From Gemmatimonadales bacterium (GTDB lineage Bacteria; Gemmatimonadota; Gemmatimonadetes; Gemmatimonadales; GWC2-71-9), in NCBI GenBank assembly GCA_039794085.1, contig JBDIWC010000051.1:1-24992 (forward strand): 24,992 bases of DNA, given 5' to 3'. Made by a program: the position numbers and the translations under genes. Below the pieces are notes generated by a model, which was given only the letters and a program-made list of their open reading frames with translations, was not told the origin of the DNA and searched no databases. Shown piece after piece: positions 3,212 to 24,806 of the stretch (position 1 is the first letter of the stretch; every line of letters begins with the position of its first letter).

Positions 3212-4619
3212 ATGCCCCGAGTCCTCCCTCGCTGGCTGCTCACGGTGGTCTTGGCAGTGGGTTGCGCCGAACCGACTGAGCCCCCCGTGCCCCCGGTCTC
3301 CTTCAATCACGTATGCTGTGCCTCCGGCATTCTGGTGCCCTTCTCCGAGGATGGGCGCTGGACCGAACTGACGGTGGCTCCTGCGGGTGGCAGCAGTGCA
3401 TTCACCTTCTTCATCAGCATGACCCATCCCCTGGAGAAACCGGTTCCCCCTGGTGGCGGGTCGGTCGGCTCGCTTCCGGGAAGCACCCTGATTCAGTTGG
3501 TGGTTCTGGGCTGCGATACCGCCATCAACCTCTGCTTTACAGCCCGGACCCGGCGCCTCTCGGGTGATGAGGAATCCGGCCAGATCCGGTTCGGTGCCGA
3601 GCTGAACCAGGCCCAGGACGACTTCGGCGACTTCCGGTATGATGTGTTTCTGGTATGATGTGTTTCTGGTTCGTGTGACCCCCCCGGACACCCTGGCCGT
3701 CGAACTCACGCTGGTCCGCGACTCGGTGGGTCCGGTCATGGCACCATTGTTTGACGCCGTGACACAGGTGGCCGAGAGCCTTGGGCCTCGGCGCCGCGCA
3801 GAGCGCACGGACACGGTGCGGGTTCACATACGGGCCAGGTACCTCCCGTCCGGTCTGCCGGCCGTGGGGGCGAGCATGCGACTGATCGGGGCACCGGTAG
3901 CCGGGAGCGGTGGCCATGGTCATTTTGACTTTCGCGGTCGTCCCGGAGGAACGTTCTTCAATCCCGGTGAGGATGTGGATGTTCCGGACGGCGGGGTGCG
4001 TGTCCAGGTCCGGTTCCCGCTTCCCACATCGGGGGACACCGTTCTGGTATACCGCACCAGCGGAGTTAGCGGACGCGAGCAACTCGCGGTGCAGGTGACC
4101 GATGGTCTCCAGAGCCAGGGACTGGTCCGCACCATGGTGGTTCGGTGGCCGGGACTCGTGGCCATGGCCCGGCAGGGGACGCACCATGGGTTCAAGAATC
4201 AGGACCCGAACGTCCCAGGCCAGCGGCACGGCAATGTGAACCACTGGGTGGAGGCGGGATTCCGCGACCGGGTGCTGGATGCCTTCCGGCGGTATTTCGA
4301 GGTGGTGCCGGAACCACGGTTTCCCAACCCCTCGCCCGGCGGCGGCATGGATACCCGATTCGTGATCACGGAGGCATCGTTGGAGTGGGGTGGGCTGTTC
4401 GATGTGGCGGAGGTCGCGCCGTGGCGTAACCCCCACAGGACCCACCGCAAGGGCGTGGATGTTGATGTGAGATCAACAACCATGAATGCTGCACGGCAGG
4501 AGGACTTTGAACGCGCGTGTGTTGTAGCACGTGTGTTCTGTTCACGAGAGCCGAATCCCAGCGTGCCGAACAATCCCCCGCACTACCATCTGAGTCCTCA
4601 ACGAGCGAGGCAGCAATGA
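3212..4619 (+). pseudogene. Module 2 gene A: lipoprotein with Ig-like and MepA-like Zn peptidase domains, frameshifted by a 16-bp tandem duplication
   Basis: Lipobox in MPRVLPRWLLTVVLAVG-C. GGTATGATGTGTTTCT occurs twice (3636-3651, 3652-3667); removing one copy fuses ORFs ..3658 and 3639..4619 (FRYDVFLVRVTPP). C-terminal ITEASLEWGGLFD...PHRTHRKGVDVD...HYH. Confidence 0.8.
3636..3667 (+). repeat. Perfect 16-bp tandem duplication
   Basis: GGTATGATGTGTTTCT x2, followed by GGT (3-bp microhomology). Confidence 0.95.
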
Positions 4620-6127
4620 GCCGAACCCTTCTCGTGCTCGGTGCGGCCCTTCTCACGCTGCCGGTGTCCAGTGCGGGCCAGACCCTGGTGCGGGACCCCC
4701 AGGGAGACTACGTCCTCACGTATACGGACTTCAACGACACTCTACGCACCGTCGTGATCGAGGCAACAGATCAGGTTGGGGCGTCAGTCACCGTGCATGT
4801 GATCGCGAGCGCAGGCGTGTTTGTGTATCGGTACACTCTCGCCAATGGTTCCACCGCTCGTCGAGCCATTTCATTTCTCGACATCCCGTGTCCCGCGAGT
4901 GATCCAGCGCTCACTGTGCGAGCCCCAGCCTCTTGGAATGCCTCCGCCGCGGCGGACGGCAGACTTGAGGGAGTGTCTGGGTTGTGGCTCTGCAGTTATG
5001 GTCGCCGCGATATACAATCCGTTGTAGTGCCGGGGGCTTCATTGCCCGATCTGGAGATCACAAGTGCATGGTTGCCAAGCGTGCTCACGGCTCGAACGTT
5101 CGGGAATGCCGGGAGAGTGCTCATGCCTACGTCGGTCGACGACACGCCAGATACGGTTTACACGCTCGTGGATCGGGCACAGGGATTTGGCTTCTTCACC
5201 GGCGGCGGACTGGCCGTGCCCGTGGTCGCCCCGGCCCGCTCCCCGGCGGTGCTCGCTGATCCGGGGCCGGGACTGGACTCGGTCGCGGCGGATCTCTCGC
5301 AGAGTTGTACCCTGGGATGGATCGTCGATCCGAGCACCTGTGCCGCGCTCGGCACTCGACTGGACCAGGCGCGCCAGGCCCTGAGCCAAGGCAACGCAAC
5401 CGGTGCTCGGGCGGGAGTGGAGAGTTTCCTGGCGAGCCTCAATGGGGCACATGGCCCGGGACGTCCGGTGAATGACAACGCCTTCTGTCTGCTCACGGTC
5501 AACGCGGAGTTCATTCGGGACCAGCTGCCGGCGGGAGGCGGGTCCGTCACCCTCCCGCTGGCCGCGGATACCTACCTCCGGTCGGGGAGCCCGAACCAAA
5601 CCCAAGGCACCGAGCCGATTCTCCGGCTCCGGGCCAGCGGCAACAACCGCGCCCTCCTCCGGATCGACTCGGCGGCCGTGGCCACCGCCGTCGGGAGCGG
5701 GACTGTAACCAGCGCCCGGCTGGAGCTCACCATCACCCTGAACGCGGACAACTGGGGTGCCACGGGCCGGACCATCGACCTCCACCGCCTCACCCAGGCG
5801 TGGACCGAGGCGGGGGCCACCTGGAACTGCGGGGATGACCTGGACCCCGGCAACCAGAAACCGGACTGTCCCCTTACCGAGTGGGAGATGGGTGGGGCGG
5901 GCCCCCATCCGTGGATTACCACCCCGACCGCCACAAAGCTGATCACCAATGGTCTCCGGGGGGTCATCACGTTTGACGTTACCGCCGACATTCAGGCCCT
6001 GCTCGGCGGGAGCGTGCACCCGGGATGGATCCTGAAGAAGACGGCGGAAGGGCCGAGCGGGCGGGTGGAGTTCGGGTCCCGGGAGAGCGCCACCCCTCCG
6101 CGCCTCATCCTGGATGTCCAGCCGTAG
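4616..6127 (+). CDS. Module 2 gene B: secreted protein with variable N-domain, FIMAH-like and DNRLRE/CBM96-like domains
   Basis: ATGA overlap with the upstream stop; signal peptide MSRTLLVLGAALLTLPVSSAGQ; LGWI...C..L...L..A..A..QGN...AR.....FLA.L helical segment; intact DNRLRE-like C-domain. Confidence 0.85.
   Translation: MSRTLLVLGAALLTLPVSSAGQTLVRDPQGDYVLTYTDFNDTLRTVVIEATDQVGASVTVHVIASAGVFVYRYTLANGSTARRAISFLDIPCPASDPALTVRAPASWNASAAADGRLEGVSGLWLCSYGRRDIQSVVVPGASLPDLEITSAWLPSVLTARTFGNAGRVLMPTSVDDTPDTVYTLVDRAQGFGFFTGGGLAVPVVAPARSPAVLADPGPGLDSVAADLSQSCTLGWIVDPSTCAALGTRLDQARQALSQGNATGARAGVESFLASLNGAHGPGRPVNDNAFCLLTVNAEFIRDQLPAGGGSVTLPLAADTYLRSGSPNQTQGTEPILRLRASGNNRALLRIDSAAVATAVGSGTVTSARLELTITLNADNWGATGRTIDLHRLTQAWTEAGATWNCGDDLDPGNQKPDCPLTEWEMGGAGPHPWITTPTATKLITNGLRGVITFDVTADIQALLGGSVHPGWILKKTAEGPSGRVEFGSRESATPPRLILDVQP
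5474..6127 (+). repeat. Direct repeat copy 2, near-identical to 2380-3035
   Basis: Direct sequence comparison. Confidence 0.95.
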
Positions 6128-6229: not shown

Positions 6230-6258
6230 TTGCCGGGACGGACGCACGGTGCTACCGT
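6230..6258 (+). promoter_or_regulatory. Promoter of the asnB leader (leaderless start at 6265)
   Basis: TTGCCG (6230-6235), 17 bp spacer, TACCGT (6253-6258) with extended TG at 6250-6251; ATG begins 7 nt after the -10. Confidence 0.55.
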
Positions 6259-6264
6259 TCTCCG

Positions 6265-6390
6265 ATGCGCATAGCCTCTCTTCCGTCCACCATCGGCCTG
6301 GCCCCCCAGTGGGGGGCCGTGTGCGCATGCCTCCCCCCGAATAATCGCCGCCACAATTTCCGGCCCTTCCCGGCGCGGGCAGGCGGCTAA
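6265..6390 (+). CDS. Putative asnB leader peptide (41 aa; MRIASLPSTIGLAPQWGAVCACLPPNNRRHNFRPFPARAGG)
   Basis: Open frame from ATG 6265 to TAA 6388-6390 (alternative GTG at 6319) with three AAT Asn codons clustered at 6340-6357, ending 30 nt before a terminator. Confidence 0.65.
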   Translation: MRIASLPSTIGLAPQWGAVCACLPPNNRRHNFRPFPARAGG

Positions 6391-6420
6391 ACGGTTCTTC
6401 CCAACCCGTTGGCTCCCACG

Positions 6421-6444
6421 ACCCGCACCCGATGCGGGTTTTTT
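6421..6444 (+). terminator. Intrinsic terminator (attenuator) upstream of asnB
   Basis: ACCCGCA-cccga-TGCGGGT followed by a T run to 6444, 28 nt before the asnB ATG. Confidence 0.8.
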
Positions 6445-6472
6445 CTGTCCCCGATTCCGGAGGAATCCCCCG

Positions 6473-8146
6473 ATGTGCGGCATCCTTGGCATCTTCGACC
6501 TCGAACCCGGCGCCGATCTGCGCGCTCTCCGGCGCACCGCGCTCGCCCGCTCCGCGCTGCAGCGCCACCGGGGCCCCGACTGGAGCGGGGTGCATGCCGA
6601 CGAGGGCGCGATCCTGGTCCACGAACGGCTCGCCATCGTGAATCCGGCCGGAGGTGCCCAGCCGATTCGCTCGGCGGACGGTGCGATCGTGCTGGCGGTC
6701 AACGGTGAGATCTACAATCACCGGGAGCTGGAGGCCGGGCTGGCCGATCCGTACCCCTTCCAGTCCCGGTCCGACTGCGAGGTGATCAATGCCCTCTATC
6801 GGACCGAGGGACCGGGCTTCCTCTCCCGGCTCAACGGCATCTTCGCCTTCGCTCTCTGGGACCGGGGGGGGGAGCGACGCCGGTACCTCATCGCCCGGGA
6901 CCCGGTGGGCGTCTGTCCACTCTATTGGGGACGCGATGCCGAGGGGCGCCGGTGGGTGGCCTCCGAGATGAAGGCCCTCGCCGGGATCTGCGCCGATCTG
7001 GAGGTGTTTCCCCCCGGGCACTGGTTCGACAGCGAAACCGGCACCCTGCGGTGTTATCACGAACCGCGCTGGCGGGACCATCAGACCACCACAGGCGTCC
7101 AGGTGGATCCCACCACTCTGCGGGAGGCCCTGGAACGGGCGGTCCACCGCCAGCTGATGAGTGACGTCCCCTACGGTGTGCTCCTCTCCGGTGGGCTCGA
7201 TTCCGCGGTGGTTGCAACCTGTGCCGCGCGCTTCGCTCGCCGCCGAGTCGAGGAGGATGACCGGACCGAAGCCTGGTGGCCCCGGCTCCACTCATTTGCC
7301 ATTGGTCTCCGTGGCGCTCCGGACCTGCAGGCTGCCGAGCTGGCGGCGAAGGCCATCGGGACCGTCCATCACGCCTTCGAGTTCACGGTGGAAGAGGGGC
7401 TCGATGCGCTCCCCGAGGTGATCCGGCACATCGAGTCGTACGACGTGACCACTGTGCGGGCCTCGACGCCGATGTTCCTCCTGGCCCGCCGCATCCGCGC
7501 CATGGGGGTCAAGATGGTGCTCTCGGGCGAGGGCTCGGACGAGATTTTCGGTGGATACCTCTACTTCCACAAGGCGCCCTCGGCGCAGGCATTTCACGAG
7601 GAGACGGTGCGCAAGCTCGACACACTGCATCTGTACGACTGTCTCCGTGCCAACAAGTCGATGGCGGCCTGGGGGGTCGAAGCGCGAGTTCCCTTTCTCG
7701 ACCTCGAGTTCCTCGACCTGGCCATGGGCATGGACGCCGAACAGAAACAGGTGCTTCCGGGGCGAATCGAGAAGCAGGTCCTGCGTGAGGCGTTCCGGGG
7801 CCTGCTGCCCGAGGAGATTCTCTGGCGGCAGAAGGAGCAGTTCTCCGACGGCGTGGGGTATGGATGGATCGACGCACTCAAGGCCCACGCTGCGGAACGG
7901 ATCAGCGACGCGGACCTCACCGGCGCGGAAGCGCGGTATCCCCTCAACCCTCCGGCCACGAAGGAGGGGCTGCTCTACCGGCGCCTCTTCGAGTCGGTCT
8001 ATCCCGGGGACGCCTGCGCAGCCACCGTGCCCGGCGGGAAGTCCATCGCATGCTCCTCTCCGGTCGCGCTCGCCTGGGATGCCGACTTCGCCTCCGCCCC
8101 CGATCCCTCCGGCCGCGCGGTCGTGGGAGTGCACCGTGCACCATGA
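6473..8146 (+). CDS. asnB: Asparagine synthetase B (glutamine-hydrolysing)
   Basis: N-terminal MCGI (Ntn Cys), RHRGPDWSG, NGEIYNH, LLSGGLDS, SGEGSDEIFGGYLYF, RQKEQFSDGVG; SD GGAGGA at 6459-6464. Confidence 0.98.
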   Translation: MCGILGIFDLEPGADLRALRRTALARSALQRHRGPDWSGVHADEGAILVHERLAIVNPAGGAQPIRSADGAIVLAVNGEIYNHRELEAGLADPYPFQSRSDCEVINALYRTEGPGFLSRLNGIFAFALWDRGGERRRYLIARDPVGVCPLYWGRDAEGRRWVASEMKALAGICADLEVFPPGHWFDSETGTLRCYHEPRWRDHQTTTGVQVDPTTLREALERAVHRQLMSDVPYGVLLSGGLDSAVVATCAARFARRRVEEDDRTEAWWPRLHSFAIGLRGAPDLQAAELAAKAIGTVHHAFEFTVEEGLDALPEVIRHIESYDVTTVRASTPMFLLARRIRAMGVKMVLSGEGSDEIFGGYLYFHKAPSAQAFHEETVRKLDTLHLYDCLRANKSMAAWGVEARVPFLDLEFLDLAMGMDAEQKQVLPGRIEKQVLREAFRGLLPEEILWRQKEQFSDGVGYGWIDALKAHAAERISDADLTGAEARYPLNPPATKEGLLYRRLFESVYPGDACAATVPGGKSIACSSPVALAWDADFASAPDPSGRAVVGVHRAP

Positions 8147-8313: not shown

Positions 8314-8342
8314 TTGTTAAATGAGGCATACCTAATTATATT
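8314..8342 (+). promoter_or_regulatory. Sigma70 promoter with a DtxR/MntR/SirR-type operator in its spacer
   Basis: TTGTTA (8314-8319), 17 bp spacer, TATATT (8337-8342); AATGAGG-CATA-CCTAATT (8320-8337) resembles TTAGG-N4-CCTAA boxes. Confidence 0.7.
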
Positions 8343-8385
8343 ATTAGTAATGCCACTCACGTTCATCCCACGCAGCGGTATTCCC

Positions 8386-9639
8386 ATGGCAACCAACAAG
8401 CTCCTCCTGGCCGCCGGATGGCTCGCACTCGCGGGCTGCAGCAGTCTCGGTCCCTCGGCACCAGCCGATGCGGAGGTGCTGGCGGGGCCCCTCGAGGGAC
8501 TCTCCGGTCCCCAATTGCGGCAGCACATCCTGGGTGACGAGGAGTTCGGGCGGATCTTCGGCGTGGTCGACGGGCTGGGGCCGGTGTTCGTTGCCGAATC
8601 GTGCGAACGGTGCCACGTGGGCGACGGGAAGGGGCACCCGGTCTTCAACCTCACCCGCTTCGGCCGGATGACTCCGTTGGGCTTCGATCCGATGCGACCC
8701 CATGGGGGTCCGCAGATCCAGAACCGGGCGATCCCGGGCCATGTCCCGGAAACGGTGCCCGACGAGGCCACCGGTGTTGCGGTGTTCATGGCGCCGGCGG
8801 TGACGGGGCTCGGGTTCCTGGAGGCGGTGGAGGACGCCACGCTTCTCGCGCTCGAGGATCCGGAGGATCTGGATGGAGACGGGATCTCCGGCCGAGTCCA
8901 GCTCGTGGACGAAACGGACGTGGTGTCGGAGATCGTGTCGCTGGAGTCGGTGCTCGACGGCACCACCGGGGCCTCCCGGCAGCGCATCGGGGGTCGCTTC
9001 ATCGGCCGGTTCGGCAAGAAGGCCTCGGCGATCTCGCTTCTCCATCAGACGGTCACCGCCTACCGCGAGGACATGGGGGTCACGAGCGACATCCTTCCCA
9101 CCGACCCGGTCAACATGGCCATCGGCGGGTTTGCCACCGACAACGTGGCCGACCCCGAGGTGTCGTCGGCGGTGGTGCAGGCGGTGGTGTTCTACCTCCG
9201 CACCCTGAAGGAGCCGCCGCGCCGCAATGCCGGCGACCCCGACGTTGTGGAGGGGGGCCGGATCTTCGAGGAGATCGGCTGCGCCCGCTGTCACCTGCCG
9301 TCCCTCACGACCGGACCCTCCACGATCCGGACCCTCGACCGGGTGACGTTCCACCCCTATACCGACCTGTTGCTCCACGACATGGGACCCGAGCTCGACG
9401 ATGGTTACACCGAGGGCCGCGCCCTCACCTCGGAATGGCGCACCGCGCCGCTCTGGGGAATCGGTCTGGCCCAGGAATCCCAGGGCGGACAGACCTTCTT
9501 CCTCCACGACGGCCGGGCCCGGACCCTGCGCGAGGCGATCGAGTTCCACGGGGGAGAGGGGTCCGCGAGCCGGTTGGCGTTCCGGGCTCTCGCCGAGTCG
9601 CTCCAGGAACGGGTGCTCGCCTTCCTGAGGTCGTTGTGA
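8386..9639 (+). CDS. Di-heme oxidoreductase (DHOR, putative thiol oxidoreductase/peroxidase family) lipoprotein
   Basis: Lipobox LALAG-C; two CXXCH (CERCH, CARCH); DGLGP.F, GLGFLEA, D.DGDGISGR, GRFG.KA, YTDLLLHDMG, EWRTAPLWG, LHDGRARTL. An alternative leaderless ATG lies at 8350. Confidence 0.9.
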   Translation: MATNKLLLAAGWLALAGCSSLGPSAPADAEVLAGPLEGLSGPQLRQHILGDEEFGRIFGVVDGLGPVFVAESCERCHVGDGKGHPVFNLTRFGRMTPLGFDPMRPHGGPQIQNRAIPGHVPETVPDEATGVAVFMAPAVTGLGFLEAVEDATLLALEDPEDLDGDGISGRVQLVDETDVVSEIVSLESVLDGTTGASRQRIGGRFIGRFGKKASAISLLHQTVTAYREDMGVTSDILPTDPVNMAIGGFATDNVADPEVSSAVVQAVVFYLRTLKEPPRRNAGDPDVVEGGRIFEEIGCARCHLPSLTTGPSTIRTLDRVTFHPYTDLLLHDMGPELDDGYTEGRALTSEWRTAPLWGIGLAQESQGGQTFFLHDGRARTLREAIEFHGGEGSASRLAFRALAESLQERVLAFLRSL

Positions 9640-10073
9640 ACCGCCGCCGATTCCTCTCGGAGGTCGAGCGACTCTCCGTGGGCCTTGCCGCGAGCTCGTC
9701 GCTGCTTCCCCTGGTCGGGTGTGGTGGCCGGTCGTATATCCGCGGCGTCGTGACCGACAATCGACTTCATGTGCCCGCCGCCCTGCTCGACTCGGGTCCT
9801 GATCTTCTGGTCGAGGCTCCCAACCAGCGGTGGCCTCTTCTGGTCGTGCGCCATGCCGATGGCCGGCTCACCACGGTTTCCACCCGTTGTATGCACCGGG
9901 GGTGCCAGGTCGATCCGGTGGCGGACCGGCTGGTCTGTCCCTGCCACGGCAGTGAATACACCCGGGAGGGTGCGGTGCTCAAGGGGCCGACCCGGGCTCC
10001 GCTGCATCGCTTTGCCACGAGGATCGAGGGGGAAGAGATCGTGATCGACCTGAACCGGATGGAGGGAGAGTGA
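9636..10073 (+). CDS. Rieske [2Fe-2S] protein with Tat/lipoprotein signal
   Basis: GTGA overlap; NRRRFL twin-arginine motif, LVGC lipobox; CMHRGC and CPCHGS..Y..G.VLKGP. Confidence 0.92.
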   Translation: MNRRRFLSEVERLSVGLAASSSLLPLVGCGGRSYIRGVVTDNRLHVPAALLDSGPDLLVEAPNQRWPLLVVRHADGRLTTVSTRCMHRGCQVDPVADRLVCPCHGSEYTREGAVLKGPTRAPLHRFATRIEGEEIVIDLNRMEGE

Positions 10074-11248
10074 TGCCGAGAGCAATGCTGTGGATCCCGG
10101 TGCTGGCGGTGTGGGCGGGGACGCTCTCCGCGCAGGACACCTCGATGGTGCAGGGGGGGATCTATCGCCGGCCCTTCATCGCCGAGGCGGGCCGGACGGC
10201 GATCGGCGGATATCTGGAGGCGAACGCGGCGTGGTCCCGCACCGATGGAATCAGCGAAGGGCCGACGACCAACCTCCAGCGGTTCAACATCTTCCTCTTT
10301 TCGTCGCTCGGGCCCCGTCTCCGGTTCACCTCGGAGCTCGAATTCGAGGAGGGGGGAGAGGAGATCCGGGTGGAGACCGCGGTGCTGGACTTTGAGCTGC
10401 ATCCCGCCTTCGTACTGCGAGGCGGAGTGCTTCTTCCGCCCATCGGCGCGTTCAACGTGAATCATGATGGGCCGCGGTACGAGTTCGTGGAACGGCCCAT
10501 CGTCTCCACCGAGATCATTCCCGCCACTCTGTCGGAGGCGGGGTTCGGCGCCTACGGCCGCTTCGGATCGCGCCAATGGGGGTTCTCCTGGGACGCGTAC
10601 GTCAGCAACGGACTCAACTCCGGGGTGGTGCTCAACGAGGAGGGCCGGACCCGGCTCGCCGGTGGCAAGGGGGTGTCGCTCTTCGAGGACGACGAAAACG
10701 GGTCACCGGCGGTGTCGGGGCGCGTGGCGGCCCGTCATGCGACGCTGGGCGAGATCGGCCTGTCGCACTATCGCGGGATCTGGAACGTGTTCCGCCTCGA
10801 CGGGGAGACCATCGAGGAGAAGCAGTGGCTCTCGCTCACGGCGGTCGATCTGGAGACGACGGTGGGACCGGTCGATCTCCGGGGAGAGGTGGCGTTCGCG
10901 CGGATCGATCTGCCGGCCGATCTCCGGGAGAGTCTCGGCGACCGGCAGTGGGGCGTGTACCTCGACGCGGTGACCACGGTGTTCCGGCCCCGGATCCGGG
11001 GGCTCGTGGATCCCCACCTGCGTTTCGGCGTGCGGCTTGAGCGGGCCGACTTCAACCAGGGTCGGTTCAGTGCGACGGGGCGGAAGCGGTTCGATGAACG
11101 GAATGCGGTGTCGTTTGCGCTGAGCTTCCGGCCAGTACCGGAGACGGTATTCCGGCTCAACTATCGTCTCGAACGCTTCCGCGATCTGCAGGGAAATCCC
11201 TCGGAGCGGACCTCGGCGGTCCAGGCCGGCGTGGCGACCTACTTTTAG
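10073..11248 (+). CDS. Outer-membrane beta-barrel (porin-like) protein
   Basis: TGATG coupling; signal peptide; IGGYLE, RF.SELEFE and amphipathic strands; C-terminal aromatic ..GVATYF. Confidence 0.8.
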   Translation: MPRAMLWIPVLAVWAGTLSAQDTSMVQGGIYRRPFIAEAGRTAIGGYLEANAAWSRTDGISEGPTTNLQRFNIFLFSSLGPRLRFTSELEFEEGGEEIRVETAVLDFELHPAFVLRGGVLLPPIGAFNVNHDGPRYEFVERPIVSTEIIPATLSEAGFGAYGRFGSRQWGFSWDAYVSNGLNSGVVLNEEGRTRLAGGKGVSLFEDDENGSPAVSGRVAARHATLGEIGLSHYRGIWNVFRLDGETIEEKQWLSLTAVDLETTVGPVDLRGEVAFARIDLPADLRESLGDRQWGVYLDAVTTVFRPRIRGLVDPHLRFGVRLERADFNQGRFSATGRKRFDERNAVSFALSFRPVPETVFRLNYRLERFRDLQGNPSERTSAVQAGVATYF

Positions 11249-11295
11249 CAGGGGATAGGGAGTAGGGTGTAGGGGCGACGCATGCGTCGCCCTTG
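11249..11295 (+). repeat. GTAG-type REP element preceded by heptamers
   Basis: GTAG at 11269 followed by the perfect palindrome GGGCGACGCATGCGTCGCCC (11273-11292); preceding CAGGGGA TAGGGAG TAGGGTG units. Confidence 0.75.
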
Positions 11296-11450
11296 CCGGG
11301 CTCCAGCCCGGCGGGCACCAGAGCGTTGGGTGCCCCTGCTCCCGGCACCCTGTTCTGACGTCAGTCAGGTGACATTGTGCAAGGGATCTCCGCGTCGTCG
11401 TCACTAGAGTCATCGAGTGGTGTGATGACCCTCAGACACGGAGACCTTCC

Positions 11451-11879
11451 ATGGCGAGACTGACGACGTTGGTACTCATCGTGATGTTCCTGCCGCCGGG
11501 TGAGGCGGAGGCCCAAGGGCGTGGAATCCAACAGATCGGGCCGGCCGCGATCCGGCAGCACTTCAACGCGTACGATGCGGTCAAGGCCTATGGTGACGGG
11601 CGCTGGGTGCAAAGCTGCCACTCCGTCTCTGTCAACGAGGCGCCACAGCGTCCCGGTACCGGGTGGCTCCGCGACGTGCCGACCGAGTTCATCACCGGAA
11701 TCGATCTCATTCCTTTCGACTATTCCCACGAGTTGGTCCGGCGAGGGGCGCGCTGTGGAACGGTGGTGCTCCATTTGGTGGAGGGGATGAGCCGGGACAG
11801 TCTGAACAAGATCGCCAAGGAGCGCCGAGAGCAGGGTGAGAAGCCGGAGACCACCTCCGCAGGTGACCGGGGAGCGTAA
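11451..11879 (+). CDS. Small secreted hypothetical protein, possibly a stand-alone TonB-receptor plug-like domain
   Basis: SD GGAGA; signal peptide ending AEAQ; NAYDAV...L.DVP...I.GIDLI...CGTVVL pattern resembles plug domains. Confidence 0.6.
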   Translation: MARLTTLVLIVMFLPPGEAEAQGRGIQQIGPAAIRQHFNAYDAVKAYGDGRWVQSCHSVSVNEAPQRPGTGWLRDVPTEFITGIDLIPFDYSHELVRRGARCGTVVLHLVEGMSRDSLNKIAKERREQGEKPETTSAGDRGA

Positions 11880-11999
11880 GCCCTCAAAACACGCATCGCG
11901 AACGTAGCGGGTGAGGCGCGTCGATCGCCCGCTGCCGAGAACCTGTCCTTTCCACCCGCGACTCGGGGGGACGCTGGTGCATCGCCCCAAAGGGCACGC

Positions 12000-12115
12000 C
12001 CCTACGACCTGTACCCTACAGGGCGGCCCACGGGCCGCCCCGACGACCTATTCCCTACAGGGCGGCCCACGGGCCGCCCCTACGACCTATTCCCTACTCC
12101 CTATTCCCTACTCCC
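12000..12115 (-). repeat. Tandem 39-bp REP-containing units plus TCCCTAY heptamers
   Basis: ccc(t/g)acgacct....cctacagggcggcccacgggccgc about 2.5 times; the minus strand reads GTAGGGGCGGCCCGTGGGCCGCCCT. Confidence 0.85.
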
Positions 12116-12132
12116 TGCTGTACCATTCCCCG

Positions 12133-12807
12133 ATGCCGGACAACCTCCTCACTCAGTCCGTCGAGGACTATCTCAAGGCGATCTACCGGATCTCGCTGGG
12201 GGGACGGAGCGCGTCCACCTCCGCGATCGCGGAGTCCCTGGATCTGGCGCCCCCCTCGGTGAGCGGGATGATCAAGCGGCTCTCAGAGCAGGGCCTGCTG
12301 GAGCATGTGCCGTATCGGGGCGTGGTGCTGACGGTGGAGGGGAGGAGGGCGGCGCTCCGGATGGTGCGACGGCACCGGCTCATCGAGACCTATCTGGTGG
12401 AGCGGCTCGACTACACGTGGGACGAGGTGCATGACGAGGCGGAGCGGCTGGAGCACGCGGTGTCGGACCGGATGGTGGAGCGGATGGCGCAGGCGTTGGG
12501 CCATCCGCGCTTCGATCCCCACGGCGATCCGATCCCGGATCATGACGGGTCAGTGGAGGAGCTGATCTACACGCCGCTGTCGGATGTGCCGGTGGGCGAG
12601 ACGGCCGAGGTCCGGCGCATCGACACGGCGGAACCGGAGCGGCTCCGCTACATCGGCGACGCGGGTCTGGTTCCCGGCGCCGAAGTGACCGTGGCATCGC
12701 GGGAACCGTTCAATGGCCCGATGACCATCCGGTGCGGGGATGCCTCGCGGATCATCGGGCCGGAAATCGGGGCGCTGGTGCTCTGCACCAGGCCCAATGC
12801 CCGTTAG
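12133..12807 (+). CDS. DtxR/MntR-family metal-dependent repressor with C-terminal FeoA domain
   Basis: SVEDYLKAIY, SVSGMIKRL, RRHRLIETYL, VHDEAERLEH, DPHGDPIP, GLVPGAEV; -10 TACCAT at 12121-12126 suggests a leaderless start. Confidence 0.95.
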   Translation: MPDNLLTQSVEDYLKAIYRISLGGRSASTSAIAESLDLAPPSVSGMIKRLSEQGLLEHVPYRGVVLTVEGRRAALRMVRRHRLIETYLVERLDYTWDEVHDEAERLEHAVSDRMVERMAQALGHPRFDPHGDPIPDHDGSVEELIYTPLSDVPVGETAEVRRIDTAEPERLRYIGDAGLVPGAEVTVASREPFNGPMTIRCGDASRIIGPEIGALVLCTRPNAR

Positions 12808-12855
12808 TCCTTACGGACAGGATTGAACACACAAGAGCAACAGTTATTGTGGGCG
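12805..12855 (+). repeat. Dispersed ~50-bp repeat, copy 1 (other copy 24804-24854)
   Basis: TAGTCCTTACGGACAGGATTGAACACACAAGAGCAACA; 30/34 identity for 12809-12842 vs 24809-24842. Confidence 0.85.
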
Positions 12856-12962
12856 ACGACTCCCCTCTTCGCCCGCAAGCCCGGCCTCCGCTCCCCTCCC
12901 CCATCGCCCTTTCGATCGTGCCCCCCGCGCCCCCGCGCTTCGGCCCTGCTATACTCCGCCCC

Positions 12963-13988
12963 ATGTCGATCGCTTCCTTCCTTGCGCCCTTGCTTCTCAT
13001 GCTCGGAACCGGGGATGCCCCCGTGGCCCACCACCCGGTACCCGACACCCGAGGACCCAGGACGCAGGACATAGGACATAGGGGGACACAGGACATAGGA
13101 CACAGGGCGTTCGTACCCGGCTTCCGGCCGCAAGGGCGACGCATGCGTTTCCCCCACACCTACACCCTACTCCCTACCCCCTATTCCCTATCACACCCAA
13201 CCCCCAACACCCAGCCCCCAATCCCCGTTCTCCAGGTCGCCATCGAACAGCGCCTCGCCACAGCACTCGGGCTCTCCCTCGGAGACACCATCTCCCTCGG
13301 CGCCACTCCCGATGCCGTCACCCGCCGAGCCGTCATCACCGCCATTCACGAGCCCCCGCCCGATCCGGCCACCGTGCTGCGAGGGGAGTACCGTCTCCGG
13401 CTCCACCTCTCTGACCTCGCCACCCTGCTCGGCGCCCCCGACCGGGTCGATCGCTTCGGCCTGGCTCTCCAACCCGGGGCTGATCCCGAGGCACTCTCCG
13501 CGCGCCTCAATCAGGGGGCCGTCGGCTTCCGGGCCGAACCCTCGGTTCGGATTGCCGCCGAATCCTCCCGGACCTTCGCGGTGGTCAGTCGCTTTCACCG
13601 GGCCATCGGGGTCATCTCGATCGTGGCCAGCGCCGTCTTTCTCCTCTGCATCATGCTGCTCAAGGTCGAGGCGCGGCGGAAGGACACCGCGGTCATGCGA
13701 TTGATAGGGATCCGTCGTCGCACGATCTTCGGAGCCCTCGTTCTCGAGTCCAGCATCGTGAGCCTTGTGGGGAGCGCCATGGGAGTGATCCTCGCCTGGG
13801 TGGCGGGCGTAGTCACGAACCTCTACTACCAGAACCTCTTCGACACTCCCCTGGTTTTCTCCCTCCTCACCCCCGGCATCGTCGGATTCGGCGTCGCTCT
13901 CTCCGTGGTCCTGGGAATCGGTGCCGGGGCCGTGGCCGCCGCCCGCCTCTCCGCCGCCCAACCCCTTCTCCTCTGGCGGCGCGGGTGA
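12963..13988 (+). CDS. FtsX/MacB-family ABC permease, C-terminal half, with N-terminal signal and repeat-derived linker
   Basis: TGcTATACT extended -10 (12947-12955); LGLSLGDTI periplasmic motif; V..RRKDTAVMRLIGIRRRTIF...V.ES and three TM helices. Confidence 0.85.
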   Translation: MSIASFLAPLLLMLGTGDAPVAHHPVPDTRGPRTQDIGHRGTQDIGHRAFVPGFRPQGRRMRFPHTYTLLPTPYSLSHPTPNTQPPIPVLQVAIEQRLATALGLSLGDTISLGATPDAVTRRAVITAIHEPPPDPATVLRGEYRLRLHLSDLATLLGAPDRVDRFGLALQPGADPEALSARLNQGAVGFRAEPSVRIAAESSRTFAVVSRFHRAIGVISIVASAVFLLCIMLLKVEARRKDTAVMRLIGIRRRTIFGALVLESSIVSLVGSAMGVILAWVAGVVTNLYYQNLFDTPLVFSLLTPGIVGFGVALSVVLGIGAGAVAAARLSAAQPLLLWRRG

Positions 13989-15172
13989 TCACGGGTATCC
14001 TGCGGAACCTCCGCCGCCACCCGGTGCGGAGCGGACTCGCCATCGGGGGCATCGCCGTGGCCGCGGCCCTGTTGCTCGACATGGTGCTCCTCAGCAGCGG
14101 AATGGAGATCTCCTTCGAGCGCCTGGTGCTGGCCCGAGGGTATCAGATCCGGGTTTCCCCGAAGGGCACCCTCCCCTTCGACACCGAGGCCACGCTCGCC
14201 GACGCAGGGGCCCTGGTCCGCTCGATCCGGGACGATCCCGGTGTCGCCCGGGCGGGGGCGATACTGGGGACGACGGTGTTTCTGCGCTCGGCCGACTCCC
14301 TGGTGCCCCTGACAGGCTACGGGTTCGATCCGAGGGCACAGGGACTGTATGAATTGCAGAAGGGATCCGATCTCGCTCCCGGCGATTCGGCGGGACTTCT
14401 CCTCGGGGAGGAGGCCGCGCGAATTCTCGGACTTGCCCCGGGCGACACCGTCACCGTCGAGGGTGAGCTCGACCCCCTCGCCGGCCTGGCCCGCACCGAC
14501 CGACACCTGGTGGTGCGTGGTGTGGTCCGCTGGCTCTACGATGCCCGGGACCAGCTCTCGCTCGGCACCACGCTCGGTACCATGCAGCATCTCTCCATGA
14601 GCCGGGGGGAGGACCGCGCCTCCGCCATTCTCGTCATGGCCACCCACGACACCCTGGCCCCGATCGTGGCTGCCCGGCTCGCGGCCCGACACCCGGCGGT
14701 TTCCGTGAACAGTCTGGCCACCCTCGTGGCCCAGTTCCGGGGACGGCTCACCTATTTCCGGCAACTGTCCGTCATTCTCGGAGCCATCAGTCTCGGTGTC
14801 GCCGCCCTTCTCGTCGCCACCATTCTCACCATCACCGTCAACGAGCGACTCGGCGAGATCGCCACCCTGCGCGCCATCGGAATATCCCGGAACACCATCC
14901 TCCGGCAGGTGCTCCTCGAGGGGGTGGTGCTCACCGCAGTCGGCGGGAGTCTGGGGATGGCCCTCGGGCTCCTGACCGCAGGATATCTCGACACCATCCT
15001 CACCCAGTTCCCGGGGCTCCCCGCGTCGGTCTCCTTCTTCATCGCCCAGCCTGCCCCTCTCGCCGCCGCCGCCGCGGTGATCGCCGGGACGGGGCTCCTG
15101 GCCGGTCTGATCCCCGCCTGGCTCGCCTCCCGGGCTCCGATTGCCGCCACTCTTCGGGAGGATGGGGGATAA
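13985..15172 (+). CDS. MacB/FtsX-family ABC transporter permease (full length)
   Basis: GTGA overlap; RNLRRHPVRS.L...GIAV, LGLAPGDTV, VNERLGEIATLRAIGIS, GLIPAWLASR. Confidence 0.93.
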   Translation: MITGILRNLRRHPVRSGLAIGGIAVAAALLLDMVLLSSGMEISFERLVLARGYQIRVSPKGTLPFDTEATLADAGALVRSIRDDPGVARAGAILGTTVFLRSADSLVPLTGYGFDPRAQGLYELQKGSDLAPGDSAGLLLGEEAARILGLAPGDTVTVEGELDPLAGLARTDRHLVVRGVVRWLYDARDQLSLGTTLGTMQHLSMSRGEDRASAILVMATHDTLAPIVAARLAARHPAVSVNSLATLVAQFRGRLTYFRQLSVILGAISLGVAALLVATILTITVNERLGEIATLRAIGISRNTILRQVLLEGVVLTAVGGSLGMALGLLTAGYLDTILTQFPGLPASVSFFIAQPAPLAAAAAVIAGTGLLAGLIPAWLASRAPIAATLREDGG

Positions 15173-15223
15173 TTTCCCGGCTCCCGAGATCCACCCCGCC
15201 GGTGGCGTCGTCCTACTTCTAAA

Positions 15224-15237
15224 TGGAACCGGTTCCA
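15224..15237. promoter_or_regulatory. Perfect 14-bp palindrome upstream of the ECF sigma gene (LacI-operator-like)
   Basis: TGGAACCGGTTCCA with central CG; GGAAC recurs at 15243 and 15265. Confidence 0.4.
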
Positions 15238-15281
15238 GTCCCGGAACCGGCCGCTCCCTTCACCGGAACGGGCCGATTACT

Positions 15282-15917
15282 ATGCTAGCTGTGAGCCAAC
15301 CGACTACGGACCGTGGCAGGAACGCAACACGTCGTTTTCTCTCGGTCGAGCGCGAATCATCGATTCGAAAGCGACTCATCGCCCGGGATGAGCGGGCCCT
15401 GGTGGAGTTGATCGACCTGGCCACCCCGTGGTTGCTCGGTGTGACGCAGTCGATGCTCTCGGATCCGGCCGAGGCCGAGGAAGTGGTGATGGAGTCGTTT
15501 CATGTGGCGTGGAATCGGATCGAGATCTCGCCTGACGCCGAGGGGGGCCTGATGCCGTGGCTCCTGCGGGTTACCCGGAACCGGGCGATCGACCGGCTGC
15601 GGTCCCAGCGGCGGCACGTGGTCAAGACCCGTCGTGCGGAGATCTATTCGGACATCGGCGATGCCATCACCCAGCCGGAGGAGCCGAATGAAGCGGGCCA
15701 GCCAGGCTGGCATGTGCATGAGAAGGTGCAGGCGGCGATGAAGGAACTTCCCCCGGAGCAGCAGAAGGCGATCTACCTCGCTTTTTACCGGGGCCTCACG
15801 CATTCGGAGATTGCGGAGGAGCTGCAGATCCCGCTGGGCACCGTCAAGACCCGGCTTCGATTGGCATTTGGCCGGTTGCGCGGTACGCTGGCCACCCTGA
15901 AGGAATGGATCGTATGA
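15282..15917 (+). CDS. ECF RNA polymerase sigma factor (SigK-like); start uncertain
   Basis: AEEVV.E.F...W, WLLRVTRNRAIDRLRS, LPPEQQKAIYLAFY.GLTHSEIAE.LQIPLGTVKTRLR. Confidence 0.93.
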   Translation: MLAVSQPTTDRGRNATRRFLSVERESSIRKRLIARDERALVELIDLATPWLLGVTQSMLSDPAEAEEVVMESFHVAWNRIEISPDAEGGLMPWLLRVTRNRAIDRLRSQRRHVVKTRRAEIYSDIGDAITQPEEPNEAGQPGWHVHEKVQAAMKELPPEQQKAIYLAFYRGLTHSEIAEELQIPLGTVKTRLRLAFGRLRGTLATLKEWIV

Positions 15918-16642
15918 ACGCTCACGATTGGTACATCGAGAACCAGGCGGCCTACATCGCCCGGGCACTGGAACGGCAGGAGGAAGAACTCTTCGAGGAT
16001 CACCTGCCCCGGTGCGAGAACTGCCGCAAGGCGATCGAGGAGATCGAGCGGGATCTCGGATGGCTTCCGATGGCGGTGCGCCCGGTGGCGCCGCGTCCCG
16101 GCTTCACCCGGCAGATCACCGTGGCGGTGCTGGATCATGAGATCCGTCCATTGTGGCGCCGGGTGATGCAGCCGCTGGCCATCGCCGCGATGCTGGCTCT
16201 CGTCGTGGGTCTCGGTCTGGTGAGCTGGCACTCGGCCCGTCTGGAGTCGACCCTGATGGTCACTCGGGAGCGGCTCGATGCCCTGAGCGACACCCTGGGC
16301 ATCATGCAGCGGGCGCAGCACATCCTGCAGACCACCATCAAGGGGGATGGCTACGAAGGGGGCATGTTCATCTTCGCCGACAACTCCACCAAGCGGTGGA
16401 AGGTCGTGGTCCATGGCATCCCCGCCGCTCCCGCGGGCGAGGCCTACCACTTCTGGTTCATGTGCCCCGACGGGATGGTCAAGGGGGCCGAGGTGAAAGT
16501 GGATCCGACCCATCCGGCGATCCTGACCCTGACCCTTCCCCAGGACTTCGGCCCGGTGTATGGCGCGTCGCTGACGATGGAGTCGCTCAGCAACGTGAGC
16601 TCGACACCGCGGGGCAAGGAACTGGCGCACCTCCGACTGTGA
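15914..16642 (+). CDS. Anti-sigma factor (RskA-like, zinc-binding H-x3-C-x2-C)
   Basis: ATGA overlap with the sigma gene; FEDHLPRCENC, single TM, P.AP.GEAYHFW, LTME...S.TP.G. Confidence 0.9.
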   Translation: MNAHDWYIENQAAYIARALERQEEELFEDHLPRCENCRKAIEEIERDLGWLPMAVRPVAPRPGFTRQITVAVLDHEIRPLWRRVMQPLAIAAMLALVVGLGLVSWHSARLESTLMVTRERLDALSDTLGIMQRAQHILQTTIKGDGYEGGMFIFADNSTKRWKVVVHGIPAAPAGEAYHFWFMCPDGMVKGAEVKVDPTHPAILTLTLPQDFGPVYGASLTMESLSNVSSTPRGKELAHLRL

Positions 16643-16674
16643 GTCACTCCCCCGTCGGAGGTGAGTCGTACAAG

Positions 16675-16700
16675 ACGCCCGGTCCCCTGTGACCGGGCGT
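16675..16700 (+). terminator. 10-bp stem hairpin after the anti-sigma gene (possible terminator)
   Basis: ACGCCCGGTC-ccctgt-GACCGGGCGT; weak U tail. Confidence 0.4.
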
Positions 16701-16750
16701 TGTGCATTCGGGGTTGGCCCCCGGTCTCCGGACCCGCTACCATCCTGCCC

Positions 16751-17434
16751 ATGACCACGATTCTGGAAGCGCACGAGGTGCATCGCGCCTACGACACGCC
16801 GGGGCGCGCTGTCTCGGCCGTTCGCGGGGTGTCGGTGGCGGTGGAAACCGGCGAATATCTGGCGATCACGGGCCCGAGCGGCAGCGGCAAGTCGACCCTC
16901 CTGCACCTCCTCGGCGGGATCGACACCCCCACCGACGGGTGGGTGGAATTCGAGGGGATCCGGCTCGACGCGCTGACCGACCGGGCGCTCACCCGGCTGC
17001 GCCTCGAACGGATCGGGTTCGTGTTCCAGCGCTTTCACCTCCTGCCGGTGTTGAGCGCCCGTGAGAACGTCGAACTGCCCCTGGCCGAGGCGGGAGCCGG
17101 CAAGGGGGAGCGACGGGCCCGGGCGGAGGAGCTCCTCCACTATGTGGGATTGGGAGACCGGTTGCACCACCGGGCCACCGAGCTGTCGGGGGGGGAGATG
17201 CAGCGGGTGGCGATCGCCCGGGCGCTGGCCAACCGGCCCGCGGTGATCCTGGCGGATGAACCGACCGGGGAGCTCGACATGGCGACGGGGAGGGAGATCC
17301 TGGCGCTCTTCCGCCGCCTCAACCGGGATGGCACCACGATCGTGGTGGTGACGCACGACGCTCACCTGGCAGCCGAGGCGTCGCGCGTGGTGGAGTTGCT
17401 CGACGGCCGGGTGGCCGCGGAGCAGTCGGCCTGA
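16751..17434 (+). CDS. ABC transporter ATP-binding protein (LolD/MacB-like)
   Basis: [51 protein letters not shown] at 16738-16743 just upstream. Confidence 0.96.
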
Positions 17435-18882
17435 TGCTTCTCATTCTGGCGTTCCGTCATCTGATGGAAAAGAAGGCGAGGGCGGTGGCCCTTCTGGCCG
17501 GGTTTGCGGTGGGTGTGGGCGTCATGATCGTGCTTCTCTCCGTGGGTGAGGCGATGCTGGTGCAGTCCCGGGACGTCCGGCTGGTCGGTGGAGGCGAGGT
17601 GACAGTGCTCCCGCAGGGGATCGACTTCGAGGCGCTCCGCACTGGAGCTCTGCGTGGGATGTTTCTCGGCGTGGACCGGGCCAGGTTCCTGCAGAGGATG
17701 ACGCTGGGAGGCCCCCGGGAAGGGGAGGCGGTGCGGGCGGTGAGTCCGGTGATCGAGGACAAGCTGCTCTACCTCCGGACCCCGGATGGCGCGGTGCATC
17801 CGGTTCGGGCCGGGGGGGAGATCCCGAGCCGAGCCCGGGAGGTGGGGTCGGGGCTCGACGTCCTCGAAGGGACCTGGGAGGACACCCCCGCCGACAGCCG
17901 GTGGTTTGCCCCCACGCCGCAGCAGCTCTACGACGACCTCGACCGGTTCCACGTTCCCGACACGCCGGACTCGACCTGGGCGGAGTGGCACTACTTCAAC
18001 GTGCGGGAGGGAGACGAGTGGTGGTACATCACCTACCTGGTCGCTGGAACGCCGGGGACCGATCAGTTCGGGGGACGACTCCTGGTGACGGCGAGGCGAT
18101 CGGATGGGCGGCATGTGCGCTACGAGACGCGGGTGTCCGGTGACCAGGTCGTCTTCGACACCACCCGGGCCGATCTCCAGCTGGGTGCAGCCTACGTTCA
18201 TCAACGCGGCGGACAGTACATCCTGTTCGGCCAGGCGAGGGGTCTGGACGGCACCCTCACCATCGATCTCACGGTGACTCCCGCACCACACCGGTACTTC
18301 CCGCCGATCGAGCTCAACGAGGGCGGCGGCTTCCGGTCGGGCTACGTGGTGCCGGCGTTACGGGCCCAAGCCACCGGCCGACTTTGCCTGGGAGGGGAGG
18401 GGCGCTGCCGGTGGCTCGCGAACGCGCCGGCCTATCACGATCACAACTGGGGGGTATGGCGGGATGTCACCTGGGAGTGGGGAGCAGGGCAGGGGACCCG
18501 CTACGATCTGCTGTACGGCGGGGTGCGAGAGGGTGAGGAGGCCCCGGGGAACGCGCCGTTCTTTCTGGCGCTGGTCGATTCGGCGGGACTCCGTCAGGTG
18601 TTCCGGTTCCGGACGATCGGGTACGAGGGAAGGCGGGAGACGGGGGTGCGGGGCGAGGAGGGTCCGGAGCGATTCACCCTCGTGGCGAGCCGGGAGCGGG
18701 ACACGCTCCGGCTGGAGGTGGAGGTGCAGGATCTCCATGCCACGCCGGGCGGGCTGGACGGGAATCAGCGCCGGGCGTTTCTGCAGATGCGGGGGCGCTG
18801 GCGGTTCGAGGCTCGGCTGGGTGGATCCACGGTGAGTGACAGCGGGTCGGGGTTCTTCGAGACGTTCGCCCTCGCCCCCTAA
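17434..18882 (+). CDS. Fusion of a MacB-type permease N-terminal half with an AttH/CrtC-like lipocalin domain
   Basis: TGATG coupling; LAFRHL..KKARA..LLAGFAVGVGVMIVLLS TM1; AEWHYFN and AYHDHNWG motifs typical of the AttH/CrtC/tocopherol-cyclase-like fold. Confidence 0.8.
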   Translation: MLLILAFRHLMEKKARAVALLAGFAVGVGVMIVLLSVGEAMLVQSRDVRLVGGGEVTVLPQGIDFEALRTGALRGMFLGVDRARFLQRMTLGGPREGEAVRAVSPVIEDKLLYLRTPDGAVHPVRAGGEIPSRAREVGSGLDVLEGTWEDTPADSRWFAPTPQQLYDDLDRFHVPDTPDSTWAEWHYFNVREGDEWWYITYLVAGTPGTDQFGGRLLVTARRSDGRHVRYETRVSGDQVVFDTTRADLQLGAAYVHQRGGQYILFGQARGLDGTLTIDLTVTPAPHRYFPPIELNEGGGFRSGYVVPALRAQATGRLCLGGEGRCRWLANAPAYHDHNWGVWRDVTWEWGAGQGTRYDLLYGGVREGEEAPGNAPFFLALVDSAGLRQVFRFRTIGYEGRRETGVRGEEGPERFTLVASRERDTLRLEVEVQDLHATPGGLDGNQRRAFLQMRGRWRFEARLGGSTVSDSGSGFFETFALAP

Positions 18883-21371: not shown

Positions 21372-21373
21372 AG

Positions 21374-21427
21374 AAGTGTGAAGTTCGAAGTTTGAAGTTC
21401 GAACTTCAAACTTCGAACTTCAAACTT
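21374..21427. repeat. Palindrome built from inverted heptamer arrays
   Basis: Perfect 44-bp palindrome 21379-21422 (GAAGTTY x3 and its reverse complement), extending with one mismatched pair. Confidence 0.9.
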
Positions 21428-24730: not shown

Positions 24731-24806
24731 GGGGGGATGGGGAATGGGGAATGGGGAATGGGGAATGGGGAATAGGGAATTATAGGGAATGGGGAATAGG
24801 GAATAG
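24730..24806 (+). repeat. Heptamer tandem array (GGGAATR)n
   Basis: About ten imperfect GGGAATG/GGGAATA units immediately after the stop codon. Confidence 0.9.

Follow-up and report, generated by a model that had tools for sequence, protein, structure and literature searches.

Asparagine genes in Firmicutes are controlled by the T-box, an RNA that binds tRNA directly, without translation. The classical leader-peptide attenuators (trp, his, leu, thr, ilv and phe), whose scheme is given in the main text of Elf and Ehrenberg 2005 (PMC1183508), use a short frame in which codons for the amino acid produced are abundant, followed by an antiterminator that competes with an intrinsic terminator, and ribosome position decides between the two. 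Passages of de Groot 2014 (PMC4007540) describe 14 putative leaderless attenuator peptides in Deinococcus deserti, whose start codons lie at the transcription start, upstream of the amino-acid genes tyrS, thrS, trpS2, trpEGD, metS, aspS, leuC, leuS, asd, cysS, ilvBH, leuA, the DAHP synthase gene and pheS. Amino-acid-rich upstream frames proposed as attenuators outside the enterobacteria also include Cys-rich frames in mycobacteria (main text of Shell 2015, PMC4633059) and the uORF motifs of cysS and ilvB (main texts of PMC8632094 and PMC11109978).

The DNA analyzed here (the window) is a 24,992-nucleotide stretch from a Gemmatimonadales bacterium. Its asnB gene is preceded by what is very probably a ribosome-dependent transcription attenuator, which would restrict asnB transcription to conditions in which little charged asparagine tRNA is available. 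Signal (uncharged tRNA-Asn) and output would be those of the T-box, which does not involve translation. At the level of sequence, four elements of an attenuator were found: a short frame, codons for the product amino acid, a predicted intrinsic terminator and a modeled, mutually exclusive antiterminator. The leader differs from the classical systems as outlined in PMC1183508 in that it would sense Asn and control asnB, its frame mostly lacks a Shine-Dalgarno site across the family, and no conserved 1:2 pause or protector helix was detected. None of the 14 D. deserti peptides listed in those passages of PMC4007540 concerns Asn, asnS or asnB, and the frames described in the mycobacterial, cysS and ilvB texts involve other amino acids and genes. 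Features of the locus, all on the + strand, are as follows, with the basis for each in brackets.

6230..6258, + strand: predicted sigma-70 promoter (sequence and conserved spacing of its TTG; under the scanner cut-off)
6265..6390, + strand: leader-peptide frame of 41 codons, predicted to be leaderless (phase test; published Xanthomonas start)
6340..6357, + strand: regulatory codons Asn26, Asn27 and Asn31, all AAT (sequence; Asn enrichment in the family)
6347..6352, + strand: possible segment 1, pairing with 6382-6387 (window folds; at shuffle level in the family)
6375..6380, + strand: segment 2, the 5' strand of the antiterminator, with a GCGGG core (sequence, covariation; Arg at position -4)
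6385..6414, + strand: inner helix of the antiterminator, 6385-6394/6406-6414, across the stop codon (stalled-ribosome folds)
6420..6444, + strand: predicted intrinsic terminator (scanner, folding, covariation)
6459..6464, + strand: Shine-Dalgarno site of asnB, GGAGGA (sequence)
6473..8146, + strand: asnB, encoding glutamine-hydrolysing asparagine synthetase B, 557 aa (NCBIfam NF006949)

A sequence-only reading had proposed an asparagine attenuator at this position, and its parts were recovered where it had placed them. The 41-codon frame runs from ATG 6265 to the stop codon TAA at 6388-6390 and contains AAT AAT CGC CGC CAC AAT at 6340-6357. The strands assigned to helix 1:2 (6347-6352/6382-6387 and 6363-6366/6377-6380) and to the antiterminator (6375-6379/6422-6426 and 6385-6394/6406-6414) are complementary. 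The proposed 3:4 terminator comprises a stem (6420-6427/6433-6440), a loop (6428-6432) and six T residues at 6439-6444; segment 3 is CCCGC at 6422-6426, in its 5' arm. The same hairpin was called by a terminator scanner, covaries among homologs and has a predicted stability of about −12 kcal/mol (−11.9). Segment 2 contains an in-frame CGG four codons ahead of the stop. The encoded AsnB matched NF006949 with 809 bits against a cut-off of 499.

Three Asn codons within six arose in only 1 of 20,000 shuffles of the window frame, and among 783 terminator-like hairpins in the genome, three, that of asnB included, are preceded by a short frame in which a stretch of 10 codons has 3 or more Asn. The whole window leader folded no better than shuffled sequences (z −1.58). 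Its 5' half folds strongly, with an 8-9 bp G+C hairpin at 6298-6318 and the start codon paired with 6320-6328; across the family, pairing over the leader start was at shuffle level (0.43 versus 0.42). When transcription reads through, the predicted fold pairs the terminator T run with the asnB Shine-Dalgarno region (6439-6467). Nucleotides 6453-6458 can also pair with 6462-6467 over this site, and there may be a second, translational layer of control.

The promoter consists of a −35 element TTGCCG (6230-6235), a 17-nt spacer and a −10 element TACCGT (6253-6258), extended by TG at 6250-6251, with canonical spacing, and the ATG follows after 6 nt. A consensus promoter scanner called no sites in the window, this one included, and the assignment was therefore based on conservation. 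In 55 of 81 leaders, a TTG occurs 35-36 nt upstream of the closest ATG in frame (runner-up offset, 5). Shine-Dalgarno-like sites precede 11 of 83 leader frames versus 66 of 83 asnB starts. According to passages of Schmidtke 2012 (PMC3300014), a transcription start was mapped in Xanthomonas strain 85-10 at 220 nt before asnB (7 versus 0 read starts). In 30/30 loci of that genus analyzed here, leader ATGs lie 220-226 nt before asnB. Note that this match holds at the genus level and does not use the sequence of strain 85-10 itself. Together with the conserved promoter, these positions support a leaderless peptide, as the earlier reading had suggested, although for the window they would apply by homology. 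All 24 RNA runs listed for the asnB coding sequence of a locus from the genus Xanthomonas were contigs; four that cross the leader break at 1804, 1948, 2032 and 2095, and are uninformative on starts or ends.

To define the family, 190 asnB loci, including that of the window, were collected; two collection searches each contributed 80 of at least that many matches. Nine loci without a gene start, eight with less than 200 nt upstream and the window itself were dropped, leaving 172. A leader layout was scored when a terminator followed a frame in which a stretch of 10 codons included 3 or more Asn. Among the matches listed, 73 of the 81 loci with an AsnB identity of 68% or higher had this layout, compared with 8 of 43 at 61-67% and 0 of 48 below 61%, where 11 reached the Asn count without a terminator. 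For further analysis, the window and the near-misses L016, L017 and L083 were added by hand and the duplicates L095 and L118 were removed, giving 83 leaders, assigned by record title: 42 from Lysobacterales, 4 from other Pseudomonadota, 5 from Gemmatimonadota, 1 each from Rhodothermota and Acidobacteriota, and 30 unassigned. The layout thus occurs in four phyla. Family counts include kin, are not independent, and should be read as descriptive values rather than tests. The leader was present in a further 30/30 loci, from the genus of L055 (30 of 40 matches). AsnB proteins from L003 (titled Rhodococcus) and L018 (titled Deltaproteobacteria) are nested among those of Lysobacterales and their loci have no leader; these may be transfers in which the attenuator was lost. 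A loose DNA pattern for the leader matched 61/61 genomes, and the reversed control matched nearly as often; it was discarded.

The terminator begins 19-39 nt past the leader stop (81 leaders). It could belong to the upstream gene, which ends at 6127 on the same strand, leaving asnB constitutive or otherwise regulated. Table S8 of Naville and Gautheret 2010 (PMC2965389) is compatible with this, since for five Xanthomonas genomes it lists a generic terminator, probably the same hairpin, at 62-65 nt upstream of asnB, with the attenuator annotation '-' and rows that name no leader peptide, amino acid or antiterminator. However, the hairpin accompanies asnB whatever its upstream neighbor, the mapped Xanthomonas start is upstream of the hairpin, and segment 2 covaries with it, so that a terminator serving only the preceding gene is hardly credible.

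Asparagine makes up 510 of 2777 codons in the 83 leaders, versus 56 expected from base shuffles (9-fold). No other residue is strongly enriched (Arg, 1.17-fold; Lys, 0.32-fold). The leader Asn codons comprise 275 AAC and 235 AAT, compared with 541 AAC and 89 AAT in the asnB genes of the same loci. To avoid choosing frames by their Asn content, the start was set by the promoter pattern alone and an AAY cluster was sought in any frame. Eighty loci were covered, of which 11 lacked the strict promoter pattern and 5 lacked a cluster. In the remaining 64/64, the cluster was in phase with the promoter-defined ATG, at spacings of 6 to 78 nt.

These data bear on whether the AAY triplets are read as codons. 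Hfq-type proteins bind A-R-N repeats, and the triplets could be such an RNA-binding site, or an unstructured spacer, with the frame incidental and the terminator controlled by a protein or small RNA. AAC and AAT runs are compatible with an A-R-N repeat, and in 65 of 83 equilibrium folds no ribosome is needed for the antiterminator to form, unlike in trp. Inside the Asn runs, however, AAR (3) and AGN (10) are scarce next to AAY (510) among 1040 codons, and the promoter-ATG phase is kept throughout; we consider a binding site or spacer very unlikely.

A stalling nascent peptide was also considered. TnaC and SpeFL are nascent peptides that sense a ligand in the ribosome tunnel, and a free metabolite could be sensed here in the same way. 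Recurrent Arg-Asn patterns, and the Arg found at position −4 of 50 of the 83 leaders, could be taken as signs of an arrest sequence. Against this, arrest peptides have a conserved length and sequence, and these leaders range from 20 to 42 codons with only Asn strongly enriched. The −4 codon lies within the GCGGG strand, and in L021, L023 and L046 its change to CAG is accompanied by a change of the matching base in the terminator arm. Furthermore, stalling would switch on a biosynthetic gene, which fits shortage and not excess of a ligand. NCBIfam held no model for the window peptide or for the 5 of the 83 family peptides tested. Sensing in the tunnel is therefore very improbable.

Covariation was assessed in an unguided MAFFT alignment of 73 of the 83 leaders, from which seven near-duplicates and L017, L052 and L082 were excluded. 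Note that sequences, not independent events, were counted. Over its ten pairs the antiterminator is 81% paired, nine pairs showing two-sided change, and its covariation of 0.184 exceeds that in shuffles (0.111; 0/500) and when slid (at most 0.072). The terminator is 91% paired with a covariation of 0.281 (0/500 shuffles). In L021, L023 and L046, segment 2 and the 5' arm of the terminator change jointly and the 3' arm retains a G-U pair; L067, L069, L075 and L109 have differing antiterminator cores in which complementarity is kept. The predicted segment 2 begins a median of 12 nt past the last Asn codon. The alignment of asnB upstream regions that the earlier reading had called for did not refute an attenuator: Asn codons and frame are conserved, and both helices covary.

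Nascent-RNA folds of the window gave an antiterminator probability (P) of 1.0 with a ribosome on any of the three Asn codons and 0 from codon 36 on, for modeled footprints of 9, 12 or 15 nt. With the ribosome stalled, the inner helix had a P of 0.77-0.87 once 6416 was transcribed. Across the family, mean antiterminator P was 0.85 while the ribosome was still 2-6 codons short of the last Asn, 0.59 when it occupied that codon (above 0.5 in just 50 of the 83 leaders) and 0.28 once it had moved two codons further; its value of zero with the ribosome at the stop codon is largely built in by the mask. Shuffled G+C-rich leaders form an antiterminator as well (mean 0.63 versus 0.86 observed), with the observed value higher in 71 of 82. 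At full-length equilibrium the window terminator prevails even when a ribosome occupies an Asn codon (antiterminator P, 0.12-0.23), and the switch model therefore needs kinetic trapping.

The earlier claim that stalling masks segment 1 was not borne out. In ribosome-free folds of the early nascent window RNA, the 1:2 helix reached P 0.72-0.89 but was later displaced, and over 81 leaders it was at shuffle level (0.70 versus 0.70). Direct masking of segment 2, rather than its release from segment 1, is supported, and in the model the switch likely needs only a ribosome beyond codon 34-35 to cover segment 2.

The start site in this genome, translation of the leader, termination and the response to Asn would then be connected as follows. 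RNA polymerase would start at ATG 6265, and the ribosome would load on leaderless RNA, as promoter spacing and the published start of a homolog suggest. With ample Asn-tRNA, the modeled ribosome would clear codons 26-31 and, once at codon 34-36 and until the stop, cover both segment 2 and the inner helix; the terminator at 6420-6444 would form and transcription would stop. With little Asn-tRNA, the ribosome would wait on the AAT codons, leaving segment 2 just outside its footprint. Free segment 2 would capture the emerging 5' arm of the terminator, a pairing supported by covariation, and polymerase would read into asnB.

The window copy is a weak one, and in this model a ribosome stalled at one of its Arg or His codons would also give read-through. 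Its three Asn codons compare with a family median of 6 (range, 2 to 9; 3 or fewer in 7 of 83) and are interrupted by Arg, Arg and His. Its terminator is the second-weakest of 81, at −11.9 versus a median of −21.1 kcal/mol, in a family range of −11 to −32 kcal/mol. These values would fit an element that is a true Asn attenuator elsewhere in the family but has decayed here, so as to sense slow translation only weakly or unspecifically. However, the promoter, ATG, frame, Arg at −4, segments 2 and 3 and T run of the window are all intact, and its two nearest AsnB relatives in the tree also have short Asn runs, of 4 and 2. Decay is thus unlikely.

The window genome (94.7% complete) contains asnS and one tRNA-Asn, and neither gatB nor asnA was found in it. 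The window AsnB is the only AsnB above cut-off. Because of this combination, Asn-tRNA here appears to depend on free Asn made by AsnB. Window-type asnB was not found in the 40 relatives or the 165 sampled family members searched, but was found in 56 of 400 genomes of the phylum. The gatB gene was found in 35 of 40 relatives and in neither congener. Among five other genomes with asnB and the leader, gatB was absent in three, partially matched in one and present in one. In five relatives (G001, G002, G009, G010 and G025; 90-100% complete) neither gatB nor window-type asnB was found, and the link between asnB and the absence of gatB is therefore loose.

In a tree of 140 of 174 full-length AsnB proteins, with distant ones thinned to one in three, the window protein groups with those of L052 and L083 (FastTree 0.98), one a Gemmatimonadales locus and the other from a genome of the same class, both with leaders. 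Recent transfer from Lysobacterales is not supported, as the tie to that order has a support of 0.14 and the third-position G+C of 0.83 resembles that of neighboring genes. A plasmid search returned only distant AsnB (<60%).

Other parts of the window were also recorded. An apparent tandem duplication of a two-gene module lies at 59-2943 and 3639-6127. It encodes an unannotated protein with a His-rich, peptidase-like C-terminus and no Pfam match, and a CBM96/DNRLRE-domain protein, the two copies of which are almost the same in their C-terminal halves. The region 8314-12807, likely a metal or iron cluster, encodes a di-haem oxidoreductase (PF06537), a short Rieske-like frame, a 392-aa protein lacking annotation and a DtxR/MntR-type repressor that carries an FeoA domain. 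One run at 12732-18882 holds two adjacent ABC-permease-like genes (the first with an FtsX match), an ECF sigma factor with an RskA-type anti-sigma factor, a frame resembling an ABC ATPase and a 482-aa protein with no Pfam match. Short intergenic tandem repeats of 7, 14, 24 and 39 nt occur at 11992-12116, 13052-13221, 21373-21427 and 24732-24804.

No Rfam 15 family matched the window or 20 homologous loci at gathering score, and no T-box or riboswitch was found there. A full-text search returned no asparagine attenuator; it covered mostly non-subscription papers, so an earlier prediction is possible. Asparagine is absent from the main texts of PMC4833913, PMC1183508, PMC5737381, PMC8632094, PMC11109978 and PMC4633059 and from the supplements of PMC4833913 and PMC8632094; asnB is absent from the main texts of PMC8632094 and PMC11109978. 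The sequence-only reading had regarded leaderless Asn attenuation as non-textbook. Leaderless attenuator peptides were already proposed in D. deserti; what is new is asparagine as the sensed amino acid and asnB as the target.

We tentatively suggest, while holding it to be rather doubtful, that the leader is a portable leaderless Asn sensor that lacks the textbook 1:2 pause hairpin, with loading at the first base coupling ribosome to polymerase. It would have spread with asnB over at least four phyla, attached to whichever Asn-making route the cell has (asnB in cells that, like this one, lack the tRNA-dependent route).

The proposed attenuator would extend ribosome-dependent attenuation to asparagine, and it would provide a testable regulator of asnB for an entire order of soil- and plant-associated bacteria, along with scattered members of three other phyla. 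The leader would also illustrate, in compact form, how attenuation can proceed from a leaderless start. Its natural series of Asn codon numbers and terminator strengths could be used to ask how codon number sets sensitivity, and the element, at ~180 nt, could act as a reporter of Asn-tRNA.
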